Source: a virus. Taken from it: DNA of 64,000 nucleotides. Below, piece after piece: positions 2,073 through 60,203 of this stretch. How positions within the stretch are numbered: the stretch's first letter is position 1; each line of letters starts with the position of its first letter. The stretch lies in IMG/VR virus record IMGVR_UViG_3300036715_002535, positions 32,001-96,000 of that record. The stretch is one strand, 5' to 3'. The notes below the pieces were generated by a model, which saw nothing but the letters and a program-made list of their open reading frames with translations, was not told the DNA's origin and searched no databases. The position numbers and the translations under genes are program-made.

Positions 2073-2093
2073 GACCCAGTTCCACAAAATATG

Positions 2094-2124
2094 CCCTTGA
2101 CATTTAAACCGTCAAGGGCATATT
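2094..2124 (+). promoter_or_regulatory. Class I palindromic promoter copy (probably leaderless transcript)
   Basis: CCCTTGAC-atttaaacc-GTCAAGGG-CATATT; ATG 2130 follows after 5 nt with no RBS. Confidence 0.8.
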
Positions 2125-2129
2125 TAATT

Positions 2130-3530
2130 ATGGTGAAATTAGAGAACGTCCAACCAGTCCTTGAAGCCATCCGGAACGCGGGTGGCATTCCTATGATCGT
2201 TGGCGGATTCGTTCGCGACCACGTGCTTGGAATAGACTCCAAAGACATCGATATCGAGGTTTACAAAATGACCTCGGACCAGCTTGCCGCCGTTTTAAGC
2301 CGGCATGGGAAGTCGGAAACCGTTGGTGCCTCATATGGGGTCATGAAGCTTTGGATGGATGGGCAGGACTACGACTTCACCCTTCCTCGGCGCGACAACA
2401 AGTGTGGTAGGAACCACAAGGACTTCACGGTCGAGATCGATCCAAATATGACATTCGAGGAGGCAGCTTCTCGACGGGACTTTACCTTCAATTCAATCTC
2501 CATGTGCCCCTTTGCCATGCGGGTCGAAGATCCTTTCAATGGCCTGGAGGATTTGGAGAAGGGTCTCATCCGTCATACTTCCATGGCCTTCGTTGAGGAC
2601 CCTCTTCGGGTTCTTCGTGGCATGCAGTTTGCTGGTCGGTTCGATTTCGAGGTGACTTCTGAAACTTCGAAACTCTGCCAGTCCATGTTCGATACCTACG
2701 ACGCTCTTGCCAAGGAGCGGGTGTGGGTCGAATGGGAAAAGTGGGCGACCAAGTCCATCAAGCCTTCCGCTGGAATTCGCTTCCTTGATCAGACTGGCTG
2801 GTTGAAGCACTTCCCTCAGATCGAAGCGCTCAAGGGTATCCCGCAGGATCCCATCTGGCACCCTGAAGGCGATGTCTTTGTGCACACCATGCACGTTGTG
2901 GATGCTGCAGCTCAGATCGCAAAGGACTTCGTTCCGGAAGAGCGCCTCATCACAGTCATGGCGGCTCTCTGCCACGACTTTGGAAAGGTCACCAACACCG
3001 CCTACTTCGGCAAGTTCTCAACCCGCGCTGATGGCACCCAGTTTGAGGTCGAAGGACCTCGTTTCCGTAGTCATGGGCACGAAGCTGCCGGTGAGGATCC
3101 CACTAAGGTGTTCCTCGAAGGTATCGGCGCTCCTCAGCACCTCATCGCAAAGATCGTCCCCCTCGTTACCAACCATCTGGCTCACTGCACCTTCCAAGGT
3201 GAAGCGCCTACTCCTCGGTCTGTTCGCCGGTTGGCCGTTCGACTTCATCCGGCTACCATCGATCAGCTCATCCCTGTCATCCACGCGGATGCCGCTGGGC
3301 GTCCACCCCTTTCGCAGGAACTCCCTACTACGGCAGTCCAGCTCCAGGAGATGGCAAAGCATGTAAGGGTCGCAGATGGTCAGCCGAAGCCGATCGTGAT
3401 GGGACGAGATCTCATCAAGGCCGGTATCAGGCCTGGACCTGAAATGGGACAGATCCTCTCCAAGTTGTACGAGTTGCAGCTTGATGGTGCCTTCGATAAC
3501 GTAGAAGACGGACTGACCTACGTTAAATAA
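2130..3530 (+). CDS. cca: CCA-adding tRNA nucleotidyltransferase with HD domain
   Basis: VGGFVRD, DIDIEV, RRDFTFNSI, EDPLRVLRGMQF, ERVWVEWEK motifs; HPEGDVFVHT...CHDFGK HD domain; C-terminal GRDLI..G.RPGPEMG. Confidence 0.92.
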   Translation: MVKLENVQPVLEAIRNAGGIPMIVGGFVRDHVLGIDSKDIDIEVYKMTSDQLAAVLSRHGKSETVGASYGVMKLWMDGQDYDFTLPRRDNKCGRNHKDFTVEIDPNMTFEEAASRRDFTFNSISMCPFAMRVEDPFNGLEDLEKGLIRHTSMAFVEDPLRVLRGMQFAGRFDFEVTSETSKLCQSMFDTYDALAKERVWVEWEKWATKSIKPSAGIRFLDQTGWLKHFPQIEALKGIPQDPIWHPEGDVFVHTMHVVDAAAQIAKDFVPEERLITVMAALCHDFGKVTNTAYFGKFSTRADGTQFEVEGPRFRSHGHEAAGEDPTKVFLEGIGAPQHLIAKIVPLVTNHLAHCTFQGEAPTPRSVRRLAVRLHPATIDQLIPVIHADAAGRPPLSQELPTTAVQLQEMAKHVRVADGQPKPIVMGRDLIKAGIRPGPEMGQILSKLYELQLDGAFDNVEDGLTYVK

Positions 3531-14579: not shown

Positions 14580-16391
14580 CTAAGTAGAAAAGGGATCTGA
14601 CATTGGTATTGCTAAGGAGATAACCCGGTCTTTCTCTCTAAACATTAGTCCTAGATTTTCCAGTTTACGTAAAATTCCATCTACATCTCGGTAAGTAAAT
14701 CCATTCGAAAGAAGAATGGGATCCTCCGAAAGGCGGTCAAGTGAAACGATGTCCAAGCAGAGATGGTAGATGCGGCTTTCGTTTTCGTCCAAGGAGTACC
14801 GCGCGGATCTACCCGGTCTCTCATCCTCGACTACTACCTTCTCCCCAAGTCTGTAGTATCTTAGGAGCTTCTGTCCCTTCTTTTGCCGGTAGTTCTGGAT
14901 CCATTCCCTCACCACGCGAGTGAGTTCTAAACTGTAGGGTGCAGAATCAATCCCATCATAGTTGAACTTTGTCGCAATTCTATAGAGCTGTTCTCTATCA
15001 AGCGGGTACAGGAACTGGAAGATTGGTTCTGGATCTCGAATCACAATTCCATATTTCTCCGGGAAGTCGAAGAGCTGGGATCCCCTGGATAGGTAGTATT
15101 CGATCACACCATTCGGAGGATAGAGATGCTGAAGTTTGTAAGCTAGCTCGGCCATTCGCAGGTACTCAGTAGGATCCTCGGAATGGAATCCACGAATGAT
15201 GTTCCAAGTCAAAGGAATGTCCAACCACTTGCAGAACTTCAAAAATCGAACGTTCTGGATTGCTGAAACACCCTTAGAGATAAGCTCGAGGATGGGGGTA
15301 CTAAGACTTTCAATCCCTGGCTGAAGTACCCGCGCTCCGGCCCTCTTTAAAAGTTTCAGATCTTCTAGACCAGTGTTACTCTTGAGTTCGAAGAAGAGCT
15401 CTAGGTTGTACTTCGACTCAATCAACGATTCGAGAATCTTAGTCCCGTCCTTGTAATCGAGGATACTGTCGACTGCGTAGAACTTGTACACCCCATGCTG
15501 ATCTGCAAGACGAAGAACATCGGCTACAACCTTCTCCCAGTTCTTCCTTCGGTAAGGAGTAGTGAAGACATCTTCCGCACAGAATGTGCAAGGGTGCTTG
15601 AAACCCCACCAGCAACCACGACCGGTCTCGTACTGAATGTATACGTCCCGCTTGACCTCATCCAGTTTCAACCTATCGATACGTTCAAAGAACTCCTCGT
15701 GATTGGGATCCTCGAATTGATCACCCTCGACCTTGTTCGACAGGTCTGCAAAGTAGATTCCAAGATCCGAACGAATGGACGCACAGGGATGAGAGGTCAA
15801 ACCTGCCTGCAACCCCTTTACGAACTCCGGTAGAGCTACCTCAGCATCACCATGCCAGATCGCATCCAACCATCCGAAGTTTTCAAGTAGGGCTTCTCCT
15901 ACACCATGGACAAGTCCCGGTCCACCAAAGATGACCTTGATACGAGGATTCAGCTCTTTGATTCTCTTCGCCAGAACCAGGGAAGCAACGAACTGAGCAA
16001 GCACTATTGTGAAGCCCACAATCTTAGGATTTGATTCTACGATCTCAAGAGCCAGCTTCTCCACGAATTCCGGGGTTGCCGCTTTGATGTCGAAGTACAG
16101 ATCAGGAAGAATCTGCTGAAGGGTCTCAGAGTCGTCTATCCCTTTGAAGGTGGGGTTAGTGAAGACCCACTCCGCGTACTCCATGCTCTGACTGATCTCT
16201 AGGTACTGTAGCCTACTGGTTACAAGCTTTCGTTCGTACAGGAAAGAGTAGTAATCCAGGTTCGCGGAAAGAGACCCAACCTTGAGACCCGCTTTACTTA
16301 GAACGGTATGAACGATTCCAAGTTGAATACTTGGGTCCAGAGTAACCCACGGCATCGAAACCGTTAGGAAATCTAGATCCTTTGGGATCAT
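14580..16391 (-). CDS. Cobalamin-binding radical SAM C-methyltransferase, RiPP-maturation type (TIGR03975-like)
   Basis: VSMPW...PSIQLG B12-binding N-domain, IFGGPG, ETGRGCWWGFKHPCTFC variant rSAM cysteine motif, VDSIL, QPGIESLS, WNII.GF. Confidence 0.85.
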   Translation of the reverse strand: MIPKDLDFLTVSMPWVTLDPSIQLGIVHTVLSKAGLKVGSLSANLDYYSFLYERKLVTSRLQYLEISQSMEYAEWVFTNPTFKGIDDSETLQQILPDLYFDIKAATPEFVEKLALEIVESNPKIVGFTIVLAQFVASLVLAKRIKELNPRIKVIFGGPGLVHGVGEALLENFGWLDAIWHGDAEVALPEFVKGLQAGLTSHPCASIRSDLGIYFADLSNKVEGDQFEDPNHEEFFERIDRLKLDEVKRDVYIQYETGRGCWWGFKHPCTFCAEDVFTTPYRRKNWEKVVADVLRLADQHGVYKFYAVDSILDYKDGTKILESLIESKYNLELFFELKSNTGLEDLKLLKRAGARVLQPGIESLSTPILELISKGVSAIQNVRFLKFCKWLDIPLTWNIIRGFHSEDPTEYLRMAELAYKLQHLYPPNGVIEYYLSRGSQLFDFPEKYGIVIRDPEPIFQFLYPLDREQLYRIATKFNYDGIDSAPYSLELTRVVREWIQNYRQKKGQKLLRYYRLGEKVVVEDERPGRSARYSLDENESRIYHLCLDIVSLDRLSEDPILLSNGFTYRDVDGILRKLENLGLMFREKDRVISLAIPMSDPFST

Positions 16392-21143: not shown

Positions 21144-21490
21144 TGGCTACCAAGAGCTGCTTCGCCGATCTGTTCGCCCAGTACAAGACCTACGATCCCA
21201 AGACGGAGGGTTACGGTAACGCCTCTGAGTGGTCCGAGACCTTTTATGAGCGGATGGGGTTCGAAGAGGCGGAAGAGATCCTGTTCCAGAACGATGGCAC
21301 TCCTCGCGGTATCCTGGGTGTGGGTCCGAAAGCGACCTGGCCTGAGATCAAGAAGGCTTTCCGCGCTCGGGTGATGGAAGTCCACCCTGACCGCTGCGCC
21401 ATCACCGGCCTGGATCCCAAGAAGGCATCTGATGAGTTCAAGAAGGTCACCGCGGCATTCACCATTCTCCAGAGGGAGTTCAAGAAATGA
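21143..21490 (+). CDS. DnaJ-domain protein
   Basis: ILGV...A...EIKKAFR.....HPDR...EFKKVTAAF. Confidence 0.85.
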   Translation: MATKSCFADLFAQYKTYDPKTEGYGNASEWSETFYERMGFEEAEEILFQNDGTPRGILGVGPKATWPEIKKAFRARVMEVHPDRCAITGLDPKKASDEFKKVTAAFTILQREFKK

Positions 21491-21926
21491 CGCACCCAAG
21501 CCATGACAGTACTTCCCAATACCCTCTGGAAAGACAAAGTGACCGGACGAATTGTCAGGGTTACTAAAGTCTACGTTCATACGTGGAACCGCTCTTCCTA
21601 CGTACAGATGTTCAACCTCACCTCCAAACGTTCCAGTGCAAAACGGTACGATTGGTTCATCAAGGAATTCGAGGAGTACCATGATCGACCCACAGACGAT
21701 GTCAGTGCAGGACTATCCTCAAGTCAAGGCTGAGCCCAAGAAGCACTTCCTGAACTTCTGCTTCTTGTTATACCATCCCTGGACTAAATGGACTTCACCC
21801 ATTCCGCGTACCTGGGGACACGACGATCCGTTCACCGGCCAGAAGGCATCAAGTGCTGTGTATCCCACCCAATTCCGGATGTGCCCTAATTGTGGCAAGC
21901 AACAAGCTCGGAAGGTTCGCTAACCA

Positions 21927-23697: not shown

Positions 23698-24366
23698 TTG
23701 GCAAAGGCAGTCGTTATCCTATCCGGCGGAATGGACTCAGTCGTTCTAGCCTACTTCCTCAAGAACCAAGGCTACGAACTCAGTTGCCTGTCGTTCAACT
23801 ACGGTCAGCGCCACGCGAAGGAACTCGGGTTCGCGGAGCAGTGCGCGAAGGATGTCCGGTCCCCTTGGCACCTGGTCGATCTCAGCACCATCCAGGGTCT
23901 TCTGCCTGGTTCATCTCTCACTGACAGCTCGATCGAGGTTCCCGAAGGGCACTTCGAAGCGGAGATCATGAAGGCCACGGTAGTGCCCAATCGGAATGCG
24001 ATCATGCTTTCGATTGCGTGGGGCCACGCAGTTGCCATCGGAGCGGATGTGGTAGCCTTTGGCGCTCACGCGGGTGACCATGCTATCTACCCTGATTGCC
24101 GTCCAGAGTTCTGGGAGAAGATCGAAGCCGGGTTCAAGTCTGGCAACGAGGGCTTTGGCAATCCAGAACTTCGACTGTACCCACCTTTCATCAAGATCAC
24201 CAAGGCGGATATCACCAAGCGTGGGTACGATCTGGGTGTCAACTACGCGTACACCTGGAGCTGCTACAAGGGTGGGGAGAAGCACTGTGGCAAGTGTGGA
24301 ACTTGCGTGGAGCGGAAGGAAGCCTTCGAGCTGGCAGGTGTTCCTGACCCAACGGTGTACGAATGA
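23698..24366 (+). CDS. queC: 7-cyano-7-deazaguanine synthase
   Basis: LSGGMDS, YGQRH, VPNRNAI, YPDCR, TWSCY...HCGKCGTC.ER. Confidence 0.95.
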   Translation: MAKAVVILSGGMDSVVLAYFLKNQGYELSCLSFNYGQRHAKELGFAEQCAKDVRSPWHLVDLSTIQGLLPGSSLTDSSIEVPEGHFEAEIMKATVVPNRNAIMLSIAWGHAVAIGADVVAFGAHAGDHAIYPDCRPEFWEKIEAGFKSGNEGFGNPELRLYPPFIKITKADITKRGYDLGVNYAYTWSCYKGGEKHCGKCGTCVERKEAFELAGVPDPTVYE

Positions 24367-49627: not shown

Positions 49628-49810
49628 ACACGGGGGTGGCGAAGTTTTTATAGGGTTCAACGGGGCACCCCCGTGTAGGGAACTAGGGGGTGGGCAGTCT
49701 CTAGGGCACCCCCGTCCGGAGAGCCTAGTCTCCTCGTGCCCCACTAGTCTCCTAGCTCTACTCTCTAGTCTCTCTAGTCTCCTAGCTCTAGTCTCCTAGC
49801 TCTAGTCTCT
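49628..49810. repeat. Two G/C inverted repeats followed by CTAG-based short tandem repeats
   Basis: ACACGGGGGTG (49628-38)/CACCCCCGTGT (49666-76); GGGGGTG (49686-92)/CACCCCC (49707-13); CTAGTCT/CTAGCT units 49725-49810. Confidence 0.8.
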
Positions 49811-53119: not shown

Positions 53120-53721
53120 AAGCTTAATGGTGGGAGGCAGATTTGGAAACCTACACGGATCGGCTTGCAGGGCATCGTTCGAAGTTAGCGCTCTTTCAGA
53201 AGCAGATGTCCAATCCAGCTACCAAGCCGGAGAGGTTAGAGAAATTGAAAGTGTGGTGTAGGAAGCATGAACGTAGCATCCGCATCATTGAAATCCTTTT
53301 GGATATCAAACCCTAGGAGGAACGATGTACGATTATGATCTGAAGTTCAAGGACGCTCAGGGGAAGGTGGTCAAGTCCATCTCCTACCAAAGTCTCATCA
53401 CCCTCCTGATGGTAAGGGATGAAATGGTACAGGGTAGACCCCTCTCCGAAGGCGGTACCCCTCAGGTGGCTATGATCTCCGAAATGGTACGCAACAAGCT
53501 AGGCGCTTCGTCCGTGGATGTCTTCTTCAATGGCAACCAGATTCTGTAAAGGGAGAATTTATGAATGGCTGGAAACTCTATATTGAAGATTCATTGAATA
53601 ATGAAAAGGTGGTTCAGAATCCAGATGGGCAGTCCCTCAGAGCTTAGACTCTAGAAAGAAAGGAATCTGTCATGGCTAAGCTTGAAGATCAATTTGAACT
53701 TAATTTGTAAGAGGCACAACC

Positions 53722-53925
53722 ATGCATCACAACACCAAATCCTTCTTAGCTCCCGGCTTCGTACCGGCAGGAACTCCCATCCTCACATCTACTGGCTATA
53801 TCCCAGTCGAACTCCTGAAGGTTGGAGATGTTGCTATTGGACTCGACGAGCATACCCTCGAACCCATCCTTGTGACCATCACTGCAATGAGTGAAGAAAT
53901 GACGCACAAGCCCGAAATCGAATAA
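53722..53925 (+). CDS. Stand-alone Hint/intein N-terminal-like fragment
   Basis: GFVPAGTPILTSTGYIPVELLKVGDVAIGLD resembles the Hint N-terminal region; no Cys1. Confidence 0.55.
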   Translation: MHHNTKSFLAPGFVPAGTPILTSTGYIPVELLKVGDVAIGLDEHTLEPILVTITAMSEEMTHKPEIE

Positions 53926-54047: not shown

Positions 54048-54080
54048 GTGATATACTTCCTAACCTGGGAAGTATATCAC
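54048..54080. other. Perfect 13-bp inverted repeat (hairpin or terminator-like)
   Basis: GTGATATACTTCC-taacctg-GGAAGTATATCAC between convergent genes. Confidence 0.75.
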
Positions 54081-54256
54081 GGATTAAGATTTATTTTAGT
54101 ATCCGAAATACGTAAATTTTCCCAAGATTTCCACACCACCCCGTGAGGTAATCCCTTGCCGAATGAAGAAGCCTGGGAAGTATATCACGGATTAAGATTT
54201 ATTTTAGTATCCGAAATACGTAAATTTTCCCAAGATTTCCACACCACTCCGTGAGG
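54064..54256. repeat. 85-bp direct repeat, 2 copies, 108-bp period
   Basis: 54064-54148 vs 54172-54256, one mismatch, AT-rich core. Confidence 0.9.
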
Positions 54257-54541
54257 CGCTACAGTGCGCAGACAAACTGTACGGTCAAAGCCTAAGACCA
54301 AGCTGCCCAGAGAATGATCTCGAACTACTATGCCGTTTTCCTTAGGGGTTTCTTTCGAACTATTCCTTGATGAGATAGGCGAAATCTTATTCTGCGTACT
54401 AAGATCTAACTTCTTTTTGGTATTACGTGAAGTTGATTCTAAATCATTTAACTGAGAAGGGGAATTCACCAGGGTAGTATCCTCAGATGAGTCCGAGGAG
54501 TAGGATGGGCTTTTTCCAGGGGTTTTGATAGAAGGAACTGC

Positions 54542-57367
54542 TTACAGTGCGCAGATAAACTCCAATCCCTCCGGTACAAGATCGAAGCCCAAGATCAAGC
54601 GCTGCCCAGAGGGATTGACACAGAAGTTCGAAGCACCCAAGCTGAATACTGATCCATCCAACCTAGCACGCTGCTTGATATCCGTGACCTTCCCGCCTAC
54701 ATAGAGAAAGCCCTTGTGTGCCCGGTAAATCGTCTTGATGCCTACCTTGTGACCCAAGAGCCTGTCCTTCCAACCTACCGCTACCCTAACCGTACTCTTC
54801 TTAAGCAATTCCTCGTAGGTATGCACGAGGATCCTACCATTGTCGAATTGTACCACTAACTTATCCGTGGGCTCCACGCAAACTGCCGTTTTAAGTGGCA
54901 CCCTACTGAAAGCCCTCCTACCATTAGGACCTTCATCCTGCAACCGGCATATCAGCGTGCCATCGCTCCCCAACCCCACCACCACCTGATCCCTATCTGG
55001 CACAACTAATAAACACTCCTGCTGCTCCCGCTCATACCCTAACCGCTTACCTGGCGCATATACCGATACCGCTTCCATATACCCACCAGAGTCCACGAAT
55101 GAAAAATAATCCTTACATTCCCCTACTAACTTACCCGTGAACCCTCTTCCTCGTATAGGCTGATCCTGAGATAACTCCCATCCCTTATCTGTCACCACTA
55201 CCCAATTACTCCTGGACTCTAACTTCTTGAATTGTGGCAAATCACTCTTATCGCAATACTTGGTTGTACGTGGTAGGTCCGCTGCCTTATAAAACTCTAC
55301 TAACTCATCCACCTGCTTCTTCAATTCAAATAGAGGAGAGGTCCCTTTCCAATAGATATACTTCTCCCTACTGCTTGCGTACTTGAGCTTCAACTGCTCC
55401 TCGTTCAATTTCAAGATCTGCGATACCTTCAATGACAAAGCATAATCTACCATCCGCGGCACGATGAACTTCGCTAATTCTTTTTTCACCAACTCCAAGG
55501 TTTCAGAACTAAGCGCCTTCAAGAACTTGGCGTGGTTCTGAATGATCTTGATCTGCGTATCCAACTCTAACGACTCTTGTTCATAGGTGGCTACGAGATC
55601 CGTAATACGTAGATCCCATAGTCCCAACCTATGCTGTGTCCAATAAGAGAGAATGTCTACCAGCGAGCACATCTTGATTTCGAATGAGCTTTCTTCACCA
55701 CTCCGTGAGGCATCCTCGTTCGATGCGCCTTTTCGTAAGGGTTTCTTAGACTCGGAGGGCACTACCACGTGGAACTGATAGCTCTCACGCTTGATCAGAG
55801 CAGGTAGGATCCTCGTGCTGAACAAACGTGGATCTTTCATCACTACCTGCACGCTGACCGCTTCCGTCGAAAAGTCCGCGAGCTCGATCATCTCTTTCTC
55901 TACGAGATCAGCCCACGCAGAGCTCAGAGTCGAATAGGTGACTAGGGGTGCGAACCCAGTGATGGTCACCTTAGACTGCTTGAGATCGAGCTCATATGCG
56001 CAGCAGTACGCTAGAGAGCCGACCCCAGTGCGGTATATCTCGGCTATCTCGTCGTGCCCACTCAAGCAATAACACTTATTTTCGAGCTGAGGCCCCTCCA
56101 TCAACGCAAAATAACTTTTTTCAGTTTTACTTATCTCACGGGAGTGGTTCGGGGAAACTTCTAAATTCCCTGGAACCCCATCTTCCACATCAACAACACC
56201 GGAAACCGGTGTGGAGGGATCATTATCGGGGGTAGGGTTACCCTTAGTCTTCTTACCACCAATAGGGGACTTAGAGTCATCCAGGGTGCTAATGCGTTCC
56301 TTTGCGAGGATCTTTTCGTACTGATCATTGATATAGGCTTGGGATGTTTTGGCTACGGACAGGATATGATGGGAGGGGATACTTCCAGAGAAGCCCATGG
56401 AGATGCCAGAGTAGCCATTGACAAGGATCAGGGGGAGGAGGGAGGAGAGGACTTCAGGTTCCTTTTCTTTGCCATCAAAGTTGGGTACAAAGTGGAGATA
56501 TTTTTTATCCAGGAAGTGGGAGAAGCCCAGGTCAGTGATGCCGGATTCGGTATAGCGATAGGCAGCTGGGGGGTGGCCTTTGATAGATCCATAGTTGCCC
56601 ACGCTTTGGATAAGGGGGTATTTGATAGTCCAGGGGGTGGCAAGGGCAACGAGGGCTTCGTATGCGGAGGAGTTATGGGTTACGAGGAGTTGGTCACCGC
56701 TTACGATGAGGGCATTTTCATAGTCATTGACGGTAAAGTCATACATAGGTTCAGGGGAGGGGAGTTCTTCAATTTGGATTGACTTGATATAGAGGGGATG
56801 GGGGAGGGAGGATTTATCTAGGACAAGTTTATCGGATTGAAGGAGGGAGGGGTAGTGTTGGATAACTTGGTAGGGTTTCAGGTCTTCAGCTTTTATCCAG
56901 CGTTGATTTACAAAGAAGGGGTGATTAGAGGTGCAGCGTACAGTTTGCCCATTACTTAGGTGCAGGTTGTAGATTTTGGTTGAGTATTGACCAATGCGGA
57001 AGGAGTGGGCAATAGAGGGAACTAAGCGACCTTCTTTGTTGAGGGATAGGACTTCAAGTTGGGGGGTATGGGATTCGATGAGTTGGGGGATAGTTTTGGG
57101 GATTCCATCCAGGCTGAACAGTTTGGTGTTACCCTCGAGGCAATCTCCATGGGGATTGTAGCTTCCGATTACATGTCCAATGATCTTCGCGCACTTGAGG
57201 GAGCCACGATCTGGTTTGAGGCCCATTTCGTAGGCGGACCAGAGGATGCGTCGTTGTACAGGTTTGAGGCCATCACGGATATCGGGGAAGGCGCGATTGA
57301 GGGAGATATAGTGGCCATACTCCAGGAGGTTGGTTTTGATCAGTTGTTCAGCGACTACGTGGGACAT
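54542..57367 (-). CDS. gyrA: Type IIA topoisomerase subunit A (GyrA/ParC-like) with mini-intein
   Basis: RAFPDIRDGLKPVQRRIL, YNPHGD/SSAY, GNYGS, AAYRYTE (active Tyr), NFDGKEKEP, LVNG..GI.MG. Confidence 0.88.
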   Translation of the reverse strand: MSHVVAEQLIKTNLLEYGHYISLNRAFPDIRDGLKPVQRRILWSAYEMGLKPDRGSLKCAKIIGHVIGSYNPHGDCLEGNTKLFSLDGIPKTIPQLIESHTPQLEVLSLNKEGRLVPSIAHSFRIGQYSTKIYNLHLSNGQTVRCTSNHPFFVNQRWIKAEDLKPYQVIQHYPSLLQSDKLVLDKSSLPHPLYIKSIQIEELPSPEPMYDFTVNDYENALIVSGDQLLVTHNSSAYEALVALATPWTIKYPLIQSVGNYGSIKGHPPAAYRYTESGITDLGFSHFLDKKYLHFVPNFDGKEKEPEVLSSLLPLILVNGYSGISMGFSGSIPSHHILSVAKTSQAYINDQYEKILAKERISTLDDSKSPIGGKKTKGNPTPDNDPSTPVSGVVDVEDGVPGNLEVSPNHSREISKTEKSYFALMEGPQLENKCYCLSGHDEIAEIYRTGVGSLAYCCAYELDLKQSKVTITGFAPLVTYSTLSSAWADLVEKEMIELADFSTEAVSVQVVMKDPRLFSTRILPALIKRESYQFHVVVPSESKKPLRKGASNEDASRSGEESSFEIKMCSLVDILSYWTQHRLGLWDLRITDLVATYEQESLELDTQIKIIQNHAKFLKALSSETLELVKKELAKFIVPRMVDYALSLKVSQILKLNEEQLKLKYASSREKYIYWKGTSPLFELKKQVDELVEFYKAADLPRTTKYCDKSDLPQFKKLESRSNWVVVTDKGWELSQDQPIRGRGFTGKLVGECKDYFSFVDSGGYMEAVSVYAPGKRLGYEREQQECLLVVPDRDQVVVGLGSDGTLICRLQDEGPNGRRAFSRVPLKTAVCVEPTDKLVVQFDNGRILVHTYEELLKKSTVRVAVGWKDRLLGHKVGIKTIYRAHKGFLYVGGKVTDIKQRARLDGSVFSLGASNFCVNPSGQRLILGFDLVPEGLEFICAL
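56672..57142 (-). mobile_element. Mini-intein (157 aa, no homing endonuclease)
   Basis: Begins CLEGNT after HGD; block B CTSNHPF; block F MYDFTV; ends VTHN followed by Ser. Confidence 0.9.
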
Positions 57368-57453
57368 GGGGGGACCTCAGGGGTATAACCGGAGTGGAGA
57401 GGGTTTTCGCCTTGAACGAATAAAGAGAGGAGAAGGTAGACCTTGGATCGTTT

Positions 57454-57492
57454 GGAGTAACCCCTTTGAAAGTGGGGATGCCTGGTTATAAT
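57454..57492. promoter_or_regulatory. Divergent class II promoter element
   Basis: GGAGTAACCCCTTTGAAAGTGGGG...GGTTATAAT between gyrA and the 57510 gene. Confidence 0.65.
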
Positions 57493-57509
57493 ATGGGATG
57501 GAGGGTTCG

Positions 57510-57995
57510 ATGACCAAGATGCGTATTCAGGCAGCAGTAGTCAAGACCAAAACATTCAACTACAAGGATGAGGAACAGGAGGCAAAGGCTTGGGCTACGA
57601 AGATGAAGGAAAAGGGTAACGTTGTCTTCGAGGATGACAAGGGTTCCGATACCTACTGCTTGTACGCTGCACCTTCCAAGAAGGATATTCAGGATTGGTG
57701 CGAGGAGCAGGAGCAGGAGGTCAAGTTAGTTTCTTTCACGGCTAGGGTCCAGGTTGCCTCCAACACCTCCATCTGGGCAATCTTACGGCAGGATGCTTTC
57801 GGGCAGGGGGATGCCATTACTCTAGTAACTGCGTTGAACGAGCAGGAAGCATTTTCAATCTACGCTATTGAGAGTGCAGGAAGCATAGCGCCCTCAAACG
57901 TTTCTGAGGAACAAAACAGGGCGGTGCTGGAAGAATTTTATGGGGACTACAAGGATGGTTACTACAAAGTTCTACCAACGGAAATGATTGGGTAG
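57510..57995 (+). CDS. hypothetical protein, KLRIxA N-terminal family
   Basis: GGAGG RBS; MTKMRIQAA; internal ARVQVAS. Confidence 0.65.
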   Translation: MTKMRIQAAVVKTKTFNYKDEEQEAKAWATKMKEKGNVVFEDDKGSDTYCLYAAPSKKDIQDWCEEQEQEVKLVSFTARVQVASNTSIWAILRQDAFGQGDAITLVTALNEQEAFSIYAIESAGSIAPSNVSEEQNRAVLEEFYGDYKDGYYKVLPTEMIG

Positions 57996-58374
57996 TCGGC
58001 TCGTTTGGAGTATATGCTAGAGGGTTTCGCCCAAGAAGAACCTACCTTCATCGCGGGAGAGGTTCAGGAAGAACTTCTGGCCATCTTTTCGTTGGAAGCC
58101 AAGGAGGTAGCGTGCTTCGCCGGGGGTTGGTCAGTAGGGACCTGGAGTAGCTTCCGATCAAGGGATACGTGGATCAGTTCGAAGGGTCCGCCGTTCATGT
58201 TTAGTTCCTTTGTTCAGGGTGCGATCAGTTGGGTCCTAGGCTTTCAGTGCCCTTGCCAGGTTTGACGACGAGCTTGGATTCCAGCCACGCATCAAACTTT
58301 GGGAATCGTTCGCATAACTTCTCAAGAATCCAGATGAGGGGTGTTGCGAAGTTCTCTTCCATGGGGACCTCGTG

Positions 58375-58428
58375 GGGAGTAACCCTTTTGAAAGTGGGGT
58401 TACAATTACTTATGGTGAAGCTACGTAT
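58375..58428 (+). repeat. 54-bp promoter-plus-start repeat, copy 1
   Basis: GGGAGTAACCCTTTTGAAAGTGGGGTTACAATTACTTATGGTGAAGCTACGTAT, identical at 59576-59629, partial at 58913-58953. Confidence 0.92.
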
Positions 58429-58864
58429 TGCATCCCAAGGTGAGATTAATAGGATCATGTGGACCCTCGGTCATCTGCGGAAGGCAGTGAGGGGGCTTCA
58501 CAAGTACGAGTCGTCTGTCAATGTGGAGGGGAAGGTAGCTCTCAAGGCAGCGATGGGAGTTTTGTTGGAAGTAATCAAGCAGGAAGAGGGTAAGATCGAG
58601 AAATTAAAGTTCGAGGGTGAAGAACATCCTCGAACCTGGAGCATTCGGAAAACGGTAAAGAGTCTGAGTTGGACCCTTCGGAAGTTGAAGTTTGCTTCCA
58701 ACGATCTACAGATCTATCTGGGTCCACACCTTCTGGGTAAGACCACGATAGGTAAGGATGCCATTCTGCGTGCGAAGGCCATCATAGATCAAGCTGTGAA
58801 TGAGATGCAGGAGAAGGTTAAGGCTCTCGAGGGTGAGCTGTGGAGAGAAGTCTTTCCTGATTAG
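58412..58864 (+). CDS. helical hypothetical protein, KLRIxA family (leaderless)
   Basis: ATG 5 nt after TACAAT; MVKLRIASQ; internal duplication (WTL..L...GK.A...A....Q). Confidence 0.65.
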   Translation: MVKLRIASQGEINRIMWTLGHLRKAVRGLHKYESSVNVEGKVALKAAMGVLLEVIKQEEGKIEKLKFEGEEHPRTWSIRKTVKSLSWTLRKLKFASNDLQIYLGPHLLGKTTIGKDAILRAKAIIDQAVNEMQEKVKALEGELWREVFPD

Positions 58865-58935
58865 TAGGTGCAGGTGTAGCACGAGAACAGTTGGTAATCG
58901 TTCTTCAGTAGCTGAAAGTGGGGTTACTATTACTT

Positions 58936-59502
58936 ATGGTGAAGCTACGTATTCAAGCAAGTGTCAAGGCGAACATGTGGGATGATGCTTATCACCCAAG
59001 TAAGCTTGGTCCCTCTTTGACCATCAACCCTTGGCAGGAAGATCAGTTCTGGGTGGCGCCAAAGGATCCAGGTATTCCCGAGGAAACGAAGCAGCATCTG
59101 AGGGAGTGGTTGCAATACAACAACAAGAGTTTGACAGGCGAGGATCTCAATTTCTTGATGCGTAAGTACTCTTACTCCGGGACGATGTTTCGAGGGGTGG
59201 GGTTTCAGACCATGGAAGAGATGGAGGAGTTTCTATCCACGTTAGGGAATGAGAGGCATCCTACCTCGTGGTCCAAGTCTTTTGAGGTAGCCAAGGAGTT
59301 CGCTTCGGAGGGGCAGACTCAATCCTCCCTTCCCAATCATTGGTTGGTTCTGAAGTATAAGGGCAAGGCATTCGACTTGCACAAAATGCATTTGAAGCTC
59401 TCTCCACCCAGTCAGAAGAAGAAAGATCGTGGGGTGGTGAGGGAGCAGGAACTAGTGATCCCTGCAGGATCCTACAGCTTCGAAGTAGTGGATAAGGGTT
59501 AG
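58936..59502 (+). CDS. Putative R-S-E type ADP-ribosyltransferase, KLRIxA family
   Basis: MVKLRIQAS; MFRG, PTSWSKSFEVAKEFA, REQELVI. Confidence 0.65.
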   Translation: MVKLRIQASVKANMWDDAYHPSKLGPSLTINPWQEDQFWVAPKDPGIPEETKQHLREWLQYNNKSLTGEDLNFLMRKYSYSGTMFRGVGFQTMEEMEEFLSTLGNERHPTSWSKSFEVAKEFASEGQTQSSLPNHWLVLKYKGKAFDLHKMHLKLSPPSQKKKDRGVVREQELVIPAGSYSFEVVDKG

Positions 59503-59575
59503 TCCTGCGTGCAGGTAGGGCAATATATTGCAGCCAGGGGTGGAGCCGCATGTGGTGCAGGCGCCTTGGAGGGTT

Positions 59576-59629
59576 GGGAGTAACCCTTTTGAAAGTGGGG
59601 TTACAATTACTTATGGTGAAGCTACGTAT
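59576..59629 (+). repeat. 54-bp promoter-plus-start repeat, copy 2
   Basis: Identical to 58375-58428. Confidence 0.92.
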
Positions 59630-60203
59630 CAAAGCCGGTCTATCTAATAGGGTCTACCATTTCACAACTCTTTCCTCGAAAGCATCTCAATTAGTTGTGG
59701 TGGATGTTCAGCCAGTACATCGTGGGTTCATTCACTTTGATGTTCCTAGTTTGATGAAGAAGTTCGAGGACTATGGACGGGTGCTCATTGTCTATAATGG
59801 GGCAGAGTTAGGTTACGAGGATAGTCCAAATACCATTCAAGAGTGGTATTTGGAGGAGGGTATGAACGAAGAGGTTCATTTAGAGTTTAAAGATAAGGCT
59901 TACGGTTTTCTTCGTGGGGCAATGGATACTGGAGTTGCTGACGAGAACATCGTTGGAGCAATCAAGGTAATGCTCGAAGAAGACTTATCAGATAGCAGGG
60001 AATTATCTACCGAGATGCAAGAGCAGTTTGGTTTGAGTGAAGATACAGCTATCAGCATTCCGGATGATCTGATAGATGCCTTGAAGGATTTCAATGGGGC
60101 AGATATTTGCGGTGGTGGAGATAACGATTGTTTAAGAGAAGTGGAGTTGCTAGCTGAAGGTGCTGGCTTAAGATTCAATCGTTTGTATCGATTTGTTTAT
60201 TAA
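59613..60203 (+). CDS. Cysteine-hydrolase/isochorismatase-like protein, KLRIxA family
   Basis: MVKLRIKAG; LVVVDVQP, DK.YG, GG...DCL.E pattern. Confidence 0.45.
   Translation: MVKLRIKAGLSNRVYHFTTLSSKASQLVVVDVQPVHRGFIHFDVPSLMKKFEDYGRVLIVYNGAELGYEDSPNTIQEWYLEEGMNEEVHLEFKDKAYGFLRGAMDTGVADENIVGAIKVMLEEDLSDSRELSTEMQEQFGLSEDTAISIPDDLIDALKDFNGADICGGGDNDCLREVELLAEGAGLRFNRLYRFVY

Follow-up and report, generated by a model that had tools for sequence, protein, structure and literature searches.

Strand composition switches abruptly from C-rich to G-rich inside a phage gene for subunit A of a type IIA topoisomerase, in a 64,000-nt window (bases 32,001-96,000) of a 111,836-bp virus contig with a G+C content of 49.5% (IMG/VR record IMGVR_UViG_3300036715_002535). 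This switch is real, and no other on the contig is as sharp; it is largely limited to a single gene, which carries an intein and is patched by recombination, and it comes without the usual hallmarks of a replication origin. The reading that we favor, with a probability of roughly 0.38, is that it reflects a recombinational mosaic of the topoisomerase gene, linked to homing of the intein. Positions below are those of the window (the whole 64,000-nt stretch) unless marked as genome positions. The contig is classed by its source as linear and about 56% complete, so the skew minimum described here is the minimum of a fragment and not of a whole genome.

A first-pass annotation of the window had proposed a bidirectional replication origin inside the topoisomerase gene, and much of what it reported on composition was reproduced. 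Its three hand counts on the plus strand are exact (23 C and 10 G in 54901-54960, 25 G and 8 C in 56401-56460, 20 G and 4 C in 58561-58620), and over the whole contig the cumulative GC skew is lowest at genome position 88,200, which is window position 56,200, where a minimum near 56.2 kb had been predicted. The difference in skew between left and right peaks at 56,105-56,322 (delta 0.44-0.61, z 4.5-6.4, with windows of 500-3000 nt); at every window size tried, this step is the largest on the contig, the runner-up reaching 0.27. Maximum-likelihood segmentation divides the whole contig into only five segments, of which two are strongly skewed, 54634-56207 (skew -0.26) and 56208-60166 (+0.28). 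The cut at all positions therefore falls at 56207/8, and within the open reading frame (ORF) the third codon positions change abruptly, with their cut at codon 361/362 (nt 56284/5; log-likelihood gain 69.8). The polarity is such that the outward-running strands are G-rich, as expected for DNA synthesis moving outward.

The gene that holds this whole dipole lies on the minus strand (54542-57367) and encodes a GyrA/ParC-like protein of 941 aa (PF00521, E = 2.7e-62), called P0001 below. GyrA structures in the PDB match it at 1e-40 and align across the catalytic tyrosine, RY(272)TE. No match to the GyrA-type C-terminal beta-pinwheel (PF03989) was found in the protein, nor to a GyrB/ParE-like partner (PF00204) anywhere on the contig, itself a fragment about 56% complete; in the related Vibrio phage GR11A, the gene for the large subunit is directly upstream of that for subunit A. 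Two antisense ORFs, 56339-56782 and 57059-57388, were considered as genes and rejected as shadow frames with no family match.

The first-pass annotation had missed a mini-intein at 56672-57142 (minus strand; residues 76-232), inserted after YNPHGD (PF14890, E = 1.3e-12, 48-50 bits against a cut-off of 35.8). Its splicing residues are intact (C76, TSNH and THN232, followed by Ser233 at +1), as in a class 1 mini-intein, and no endonuclease domain was found in it. Since the insertion follows PHGD, the +1 Ser corresponds to Ser83 of Escherichia coli GyrA. Among relatives, which were compared as proteins, the intein is present in P0124 and precisely absent from the close homologue P0002, and P0005 carries a longer intein with an HNH domain (HNH_3) at the same insertion site.

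Two clade-specific, low-complexity inserts lie further along the protein. Insert 1 (56117-56281, minus strand; residues 363-417, DDSKSPIGG...SKTEK) is missing in GyrA structures and in P0005-P0008 and is found in P0002, P0123, and P0124; the earlier description of this stretch as an insertion is borne out by comparison with Mycobacterium tuberculosis GyrA and with more distant phage homologues. Most of it evolves fast, with P0001 and P0124 differing at about 25% of its residues vs. about 5% in the flanks. Insert 2 (55685-55756, minus strand; residues about 538-561) occurs only in P0001, P0002, P0004, and close relatives. In an AlphaFold model too weak to carry weight (7 sequences; mean predicted local distance difference test score, pLDDT, of 50), both inserts are coil with pLDDT below 50 (residues 539-564 in the case of insert 2), and both are probably disordered.

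At silent sites, the dipole resolves into two blocks of opposite composition. The first, which avoids G on the sense strand, spans codons 1-361 (56285-57367, minus strand) and comprises the N-extein, the intein, and the C-flank, that is, the intein with flanks of 225 nt and 387 nt, about 130 codons behind the intein included. Its third positions hold 29 G vs. 178 C. At four-fold degenerate sites, the C fraction is 0.60 and that of G is 0.07, and overall G is 0.15, all of them extremes among the 106-130 genes compared. Over the first 355 codons, these sites count 106 C, 13 G, 26 A, and 31 T; only 14% of purine-ending two-fold codons end in G, likewise an extreme (GAA, AAA, and CAA total 47 vs. 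8 for their G-ending partners), and TTG codons do not occur in the block. The second block, which avoids C on the sense strand, covers residues about 620-910 (54634-55500, minus strand), the avoidance of C being an outlier over residues about 600-880, and its segmentation edge at 54634 is 90 nt from the stop codon. Over residues 601-840, the four-fold fraction of G is 0.42 (38 sites) and that of C is 0.09 (8 sites), with 0.32 and 0.15 overall, again extremes among the contig's genes. Leu is encoded by TTA or TTG at 22 of 28 codons (79% TTR), and Arg via AGG and CGG.

Accordingly, the third-position skew of the sense strand is -0.6 to -0.9 over residues 1-360, about 0 over 390-600, and +0.4 to +0.78 over 600-840, so that about 0.8 kb of near-normal composition, bounded by the two clade-specific inserts, separates the blocks. 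G trades with C in both, while A and T are unaffected and show no skew. The within-gene range of third-position skew is 1.53, vs. at most 0.50 in every other long gene, and a general 5'-to-3' gradient, which is absent from those genes, was rejected. An explanation by tRNA adaptation or by a codon class tied to expression level was likewise dismissed, since other genes prefer C at four-fold sites but none equals this one in avoiding G at purine-ending codons. The strand-symmetrised dinucleotide signature places the blocks at the 95th-97th percentile, on a measure that the skew itself inflates.

This composition is also visible in gene annotation. The public gene call for P0001 (P0003) has 618 aa and lacks the first 323 residues and the intein, and in relatives, too, the calls begin at internal methionines, which lie shortly after the anomalous block (M423 in P0004, of 518 aa, and M208 in P0123, of 733 aa), so the intein and the catalytic N-terminus are absent from the annotations. 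These calls are likely truncated because the G-avoiding block scores as non-coding. The internal starts are weak evidence that the relatives share the composition anomaly.

The bias belongs mostly to the topoisomerase gene and not to the chromosome. The first-pass annotation had held the skew to be independent of gene direction; we separated the coding-strand term from the orientation-independent term at four-fold sites in 4-kb bins, leaving out the topoisomerase gene. Of that claim, a weak orientation-independent excess of G over 58-63.6 kb survives (+0.16 in the 60-64 kb bin). Elsewhere outside the topoisomerase gene the orientation-independent skew is about 0 (-0.15 to +0.09) contig-wide. 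In most bins, the coding-strand term lies at about -0.04 to -0.29, C-ending codons being mildly preferred. After correction for orientation, the G excess of the plus strand is flat at +0.33 to +0.35 in the three bins over 56208-57400, drops to +0.07 just past the start of the ORF, and is +0.04 to +0.21 to the right of the gene out to 63.6 kb. The left arm reads, outward from the centre, -0.05, -0.15, -0.37, -0.20, and -0.12; that is, over 54600-55500 it lies at -0.20 to -0.37, and by the stop codon it has faded. The bias consists of plateaus that end near the ends of the ORF; it does not tail off around a point, and next to the supposed centre the left arm is at its weakest.

To the right, the weaker skew arm coincides with small genes that are read rightward and arrayed behind promoter units in which GGTTAYAAT recurs (57454-60203, plus strand; motif at 57484, 58398, and 59599). 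These cassette genes start about 140 bp past the start of the topoisomerase ORF and are nearly balanced at four-fold sites, with a plus-strand G:C count of 84:70 vs. 106:13 in the N-terminal part of the topoisomerase gene (Fisher P = 2e-10). Their coding strand is C-poor and G-rich mainly via first positions and the codons AAG, GAG, and CAG, and the arm stops at 60166, where gene direction turns. The topoisomerase leader (CATGGGGGGACCTCAGGGG..., 57365-57390) resembles the left part of a cassette unit (CATGGGGACCTCGTGGGG..., 58361-58386), and the cassette promoters may be duplicates of the divergent promoter region of the topoisomerase gene.

Two further observations concern the other side of the gene. 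A 67-aa ORF 0.6 kb downstream of it (53722-53925, plus strand), at a secondary skew cut at 53715, has a sub-threshold similarity to a Hint domain over the latter's N-terminal part (PF13403, E = 2.6e-4). An approximately 84-bp tandem duplication lies just downstream of the gene, at about 54050-54250, and the end of the ORF at 54185-54469 (...HGVVWKSWENLRISDTKINLNP) is repeated once more past its stop codon.

A bias confined to the ORF and its leader could arise from selection on the gene's own nucleic acid, either on an mRNA with a G-poor 5' half and a C-poor 3' half (through structure, translation, or stability) or on a G-rich antisense transcript running from insert 1 into the cassette array. 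In line with this, every degenerate codon class is affected, including Leu (CTN vs. TTR) and Arg, which indicates avoidance of a nucleotide and not tRNA adaptation; two-fold pyrimidine choice is unaffected in the N-terminal half, and the plus strand of that half is rich in GGA and GGAGG words. However, the 5' and 3' blocks are no more complementary than their composition gives, the best duplex between them having -424.9 kcal/mol vs. -426.8 +/- 10.5 in shuffles (z = 0.18), and block pairing in the mRNA was rejected. G-quadruplex or R-loop motifs were also rejected, as neither block contains a canonical G-quadruplex and the excess of runs of at least four G (21 vs. 11.6 expected) is explicable by CCC and TCC codons. 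A rightward sigma-70-like promoter, or either type of phage promoter, is lacking near 56.2 kb, and the locus has no Rfam match. We know of no precedent for nucleic-acid selection over 360 codons. Such selection appears distinctly improbable, and it ranks third, after the mosaic and, in second place, a start of DNA synthesis at the locus.

The latter alternative is somewhat unlikely: DNA synthesis would repeatedly start in 55.5-56.3 kb and run outward, either from a true in-frame origin or by replication of the recombination-dependent or break-induced kind, at a site that is broken repeatedly in connection with homing, and the displaced outward-running strands would gather a strand-specific mutation bias. 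The polarity is right on both sides, on sense or antisense strand, and the switch is the strongest and the sole major one on the contig; this match of polarity with a locus unique on the contig is what keeps an origin-like or break-induced start alive. In addition, the flip falls within a low-constraint insert, at a hairpin, with a skew of -0.32 over 56100-56199 and +0.19 over 56200-56299, and the weak excess of G that is independent of direction reaches as far as 63.6 kb. The same bias is seen in the intein and in the exteins although the intein is mobile, and homing in T4 proceeds via recombination-dependent replication (PMC2988022). On the other hand, skew on the scale of replichores is absent. 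The plateaus end with the ORF, the left arm is weakest at the centre, and the cassette genes immediately beyond are nearly balanced. G is gained at the expense of C without A/T skew, unlike a deamination signature, and the switch lies 390-460 bp from the intein insertion site.

A search for the hallmarks of an origin gave little. The hairpin ACACCGG-AAA-CCGGTGT is exactly where the first-pass annotation had placed it (56196-56212), at the all-position cut; its sequence is unique in the contig, and it lies in the best-conserved part of insert 1 (TPVSGVVDVED, with TPVSGV at the hairpin). As a special element it was rejected, since the window holds 45 hairpins of this 7-bp kind (23 expected) and the local fold has a z of -0.84. 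No iterons or repeat families occur in 55.4-57.0 kb. The strict DnaA box TTWTNCACA has 0 matches, and TTATCCACA with at most one mismatch occurs 9 times vs. 12.6 expected. No promoter of the sigma-70, GGTTANAAT, or CCCTTGAC palindrome type was found at the centre, and no Rfam family matches the locus. Two features are weak hints of an origin only. One is a 30-mer of 80% A+T at 56107-56136, 60-100 bp from the cut and in the top 0.07% of 30-nt windows; there are about 22 such regions in 112 kb, so the chance of such proximity is about 0.06, and at 60 nt the enrichment is not significant (maximum 62%, below the contig's 99th percentile). The other is a cluster of four TTATCCA 7-mers, two per strand, at 56505-56899 in the G-avoiding block, 300-700 bp to the right of the cut; these are four of the six copies on the contig (P = 8.5e-4 by synonymous-codon shuffling), and they were spotted post hoc.

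The proposed origin is supported in part. The skew minimum is present at 56.2 kb and the segment is unlike normal topoisomerase sequence, the two points on which the first-pass annotation had staked its claim, and these are not sufficient to establish an origin, given the gene-bound plateaus, the lack of replichore skew, iterons, strict DnaA boxes, and promoter, and the ordinary hairpin. It is rather improbable that an in-frame start of DNA synthesis, whether a true origin or a fixed recombination-dependent start, sits in a disordered loop of the topoisomerase and has left a kilobase-scale mirror-image mutational footprint. Elsewhere in the window, the intergenic region at 49630-49810 holds an array of 4.6 tandem 14-nt units (CTAGTCTCCTAGCT), preceded by GGGGCACCCCCG-type palindromes; this array is more iteron- or operator-like than anything at the topoisomerase insert, and the second largest skew step of the contig is about 0.5 kb away.

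The recombinational mosaic that we favor is suggested by the relatives of the topoisomerase. Scans of viral, metagenome, and genome contigs and blastn against phages recovered no relative at the DNA level, and the comparison was made with close homologous proteins, P0002 (86-89% identical) and P0124 (93%). P0001 and P0002 are 85-94% identical in all segments except residues 349-361 (56285-56323, minus strand), a hypervariable junction of 31% identity with a 15-residue indel in P0002; junction and indel fall exactly at the composition cut. Informative sites among the three proteins, counted as grouping P0001 with P0124 or with P0002, switch allegiance in runs: 10 vs. 3 over residues 1-348, 11 vs. 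17 over 362-626, and 14 vs. 1 over 638-683 (Fisher P = 0.04 and 0.0009). These runs identify the gene as a recombination patchwork in this clade, which the first-pass annotation had also missed. Moreover, similarity to the HNH-intein allele P0005 is relatively higher in the N-terminal part than in the middle part.

In the proposed mechanism, related phages would have exchanged segments of the gene by homologous recombination, probably helped by intein homing with co-conversion of its flanks, as the HNH intein at the same site in P0005 suggests. The exchanged segments would carry different strand-composition histories, and the fast-evolving insert would be a heterologous joint, accommodated by the protein as a surface loop; farther to the right, the richness in G would be mainly the ordinary coding-strand bias of the rightward small-gene array. 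Co-conversion of flanks during homing is established in phages (PMC2988022), as is the presence of nuclease genes at exchange boundaries (PMC10448857). Separate histories of segments fit better than a start of DNA synthesis because the ORF bounds the plateaus, the left arm is non-monotonic, the neighbouring genes are nearly balanced at four-fold sites, A/T skew is lacking, and the inner edge of the N-terminal block coincides with the hypervariable junction and indel.

Several points weigh against this reading. The evidence for a mosaic is at the protein level. Both blocks are more extreme than any gene of the contig, so that a mosaic only moves the question of the bias to the donors, and it would have to put their mirror-image polarity down to chance. 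P0005 stands at equal distance from P0001 and from P0002, which lacks the intein (84.0 vs. 82.7% and 81.7 vs. 80.9%); any import is therefore old and predates the split between P0001 and P0002. The modest orientation-independent G excess over 58-63.6 kb has z up to 3.6, and the intergenic region 57368-57500 is also G-rich. Finally, the flip of the skew near the hairpin, within an unconstrained insert, is easier to reconcile with a point source than with a joint at codon 361.

Two further comparisons bear on both homing and a recurrent start. The topoisomerase genes of distant relatives, Vibrio phage GR11A and gut phage MT835476, lack the flip (maximum step 0.15-0.19), which counts against a start site. 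The same is true of three other free-standing nuclease genes on the contig, of the GIY-YIG (genome 1918-2178 and 54340-54552) and HNH (21436-21573) types, where the skew step is at most 0.25; a general "homing scar" is therefore not replicated within the contig. A GIY-YIG nuclease gene of 300 aa (genome 1279-2181, minus strand; window -30721 to -29819) adjoins the terminase gene; its coding strand is unusually G-rich (third-position skew +0.33), and the fourth largest skew step of the contig (0.25) is found there.

Comparison with known systems places the locus between several of them. Like bidirectional origins defined by skew, such as bacterial oriC and that of phage ICP1, in which a coverage peak marks a theta origin (PMC7145576), it shows a cumulative GC skew in the form of a V, and the strands that lead outward from the minimum are G-rich. 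In contrast to these, the asymmetry spans only 1.6 kb and 4 kb, lies mostly in one ORF, does not recur on the remainder of the contig, has no A/T component, and is accompanied by no initiator sites. Origins within coding sequence have precedents: the lambda ori is inside gene O, in the linker between domains, and T4 ori(34) and ori(uvsY) also lie within coding sequence. P1 oriL is reported to lie inside repL (PMC9948254). These cases are alike in that a cis-acting replication element is tolerable inside an ORF, but the lambda, T4, and P1 origins feature either iterons or an unwinding element together with a promoter, and most of them reside in the initiator's gene, whereas the present locus shows none of these and the insert is mostly fast-evolving.

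The likeness to the homing of inteins and homing endonucleases lies in an intein within a conserved replication gene, an endonuclease-bearing allele at the same site in a relative, and patchy exchange; as in co-conversion, the anomalous block comprises the intein and a few hundred bp on each side. In contrast, the resident intein has lost its endonuclease, and the C-avoiding block is without a known mobile element. To our knowledge, co-conversion tracts have not been described as having an anomalous strand composition. Transcription-associated strand asymmetry produces an excess of G and T on the non-template strand. Similarly, C is scarce on the coding strand both in the C-terminal part of the gene and in the cassette array, and the arms end with transcription units; however, the first 361 codons run opposite to what their own transcription would give, and there is no excess of T over A. 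Mycobacterial GyrA inteins (Mxe GyrA) are inserted beside the catalytic tyrosine. The intein described here is likewise of class 1 and in a gene for subunit A of a type IIA topoisomerase, but it occupies another site (after PHGD) and a phage enzyme.

The remainder of the contig is that of a phage with terminase, portal protein, and tail fibre genes; the terminase is about 30% identical to those of phages of about 200-270 kb that infect Dickeya, Erwinia, and Vibrio. tRNA genes were searched for on the contig and none was found. The contig also encodes QueC (23698-24366, plus strand), a radical-SAM/B12-binding protein (14580-16391, minus strand), and a CCA-adding enzyme (2091-3530, plus strand); together with a deoxyhypusine-synthase-like protein (L003:5939-7159, minus strand), these point to 7-deazaguanine or another modification of nucleic acid. 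In Vibrio phage GR11A, two queC genes and a lysine 2,3-aminomutase gene adjoin the topoisomerase genes.

More generally, a minimum of cumulative skew is insufficient on its own as a sign of an origin, since most of the signal here derives from a single gene, in which the synonymous sites of the two ends differ in opposite and extreme ways. The composition of these blocks is pronounced enough to make gene callers fail. For large uncultured phages, the origin is almost never known, and a sharp intragenic skew dipole, if it truly marked one, would be a cheap means of finding them; in that case, such dipoles would form a map of phage replication starts readable from sequence. If, instead, the reading by recombination and homing is right, they would mark hot spots of exchange in essential phage genes.

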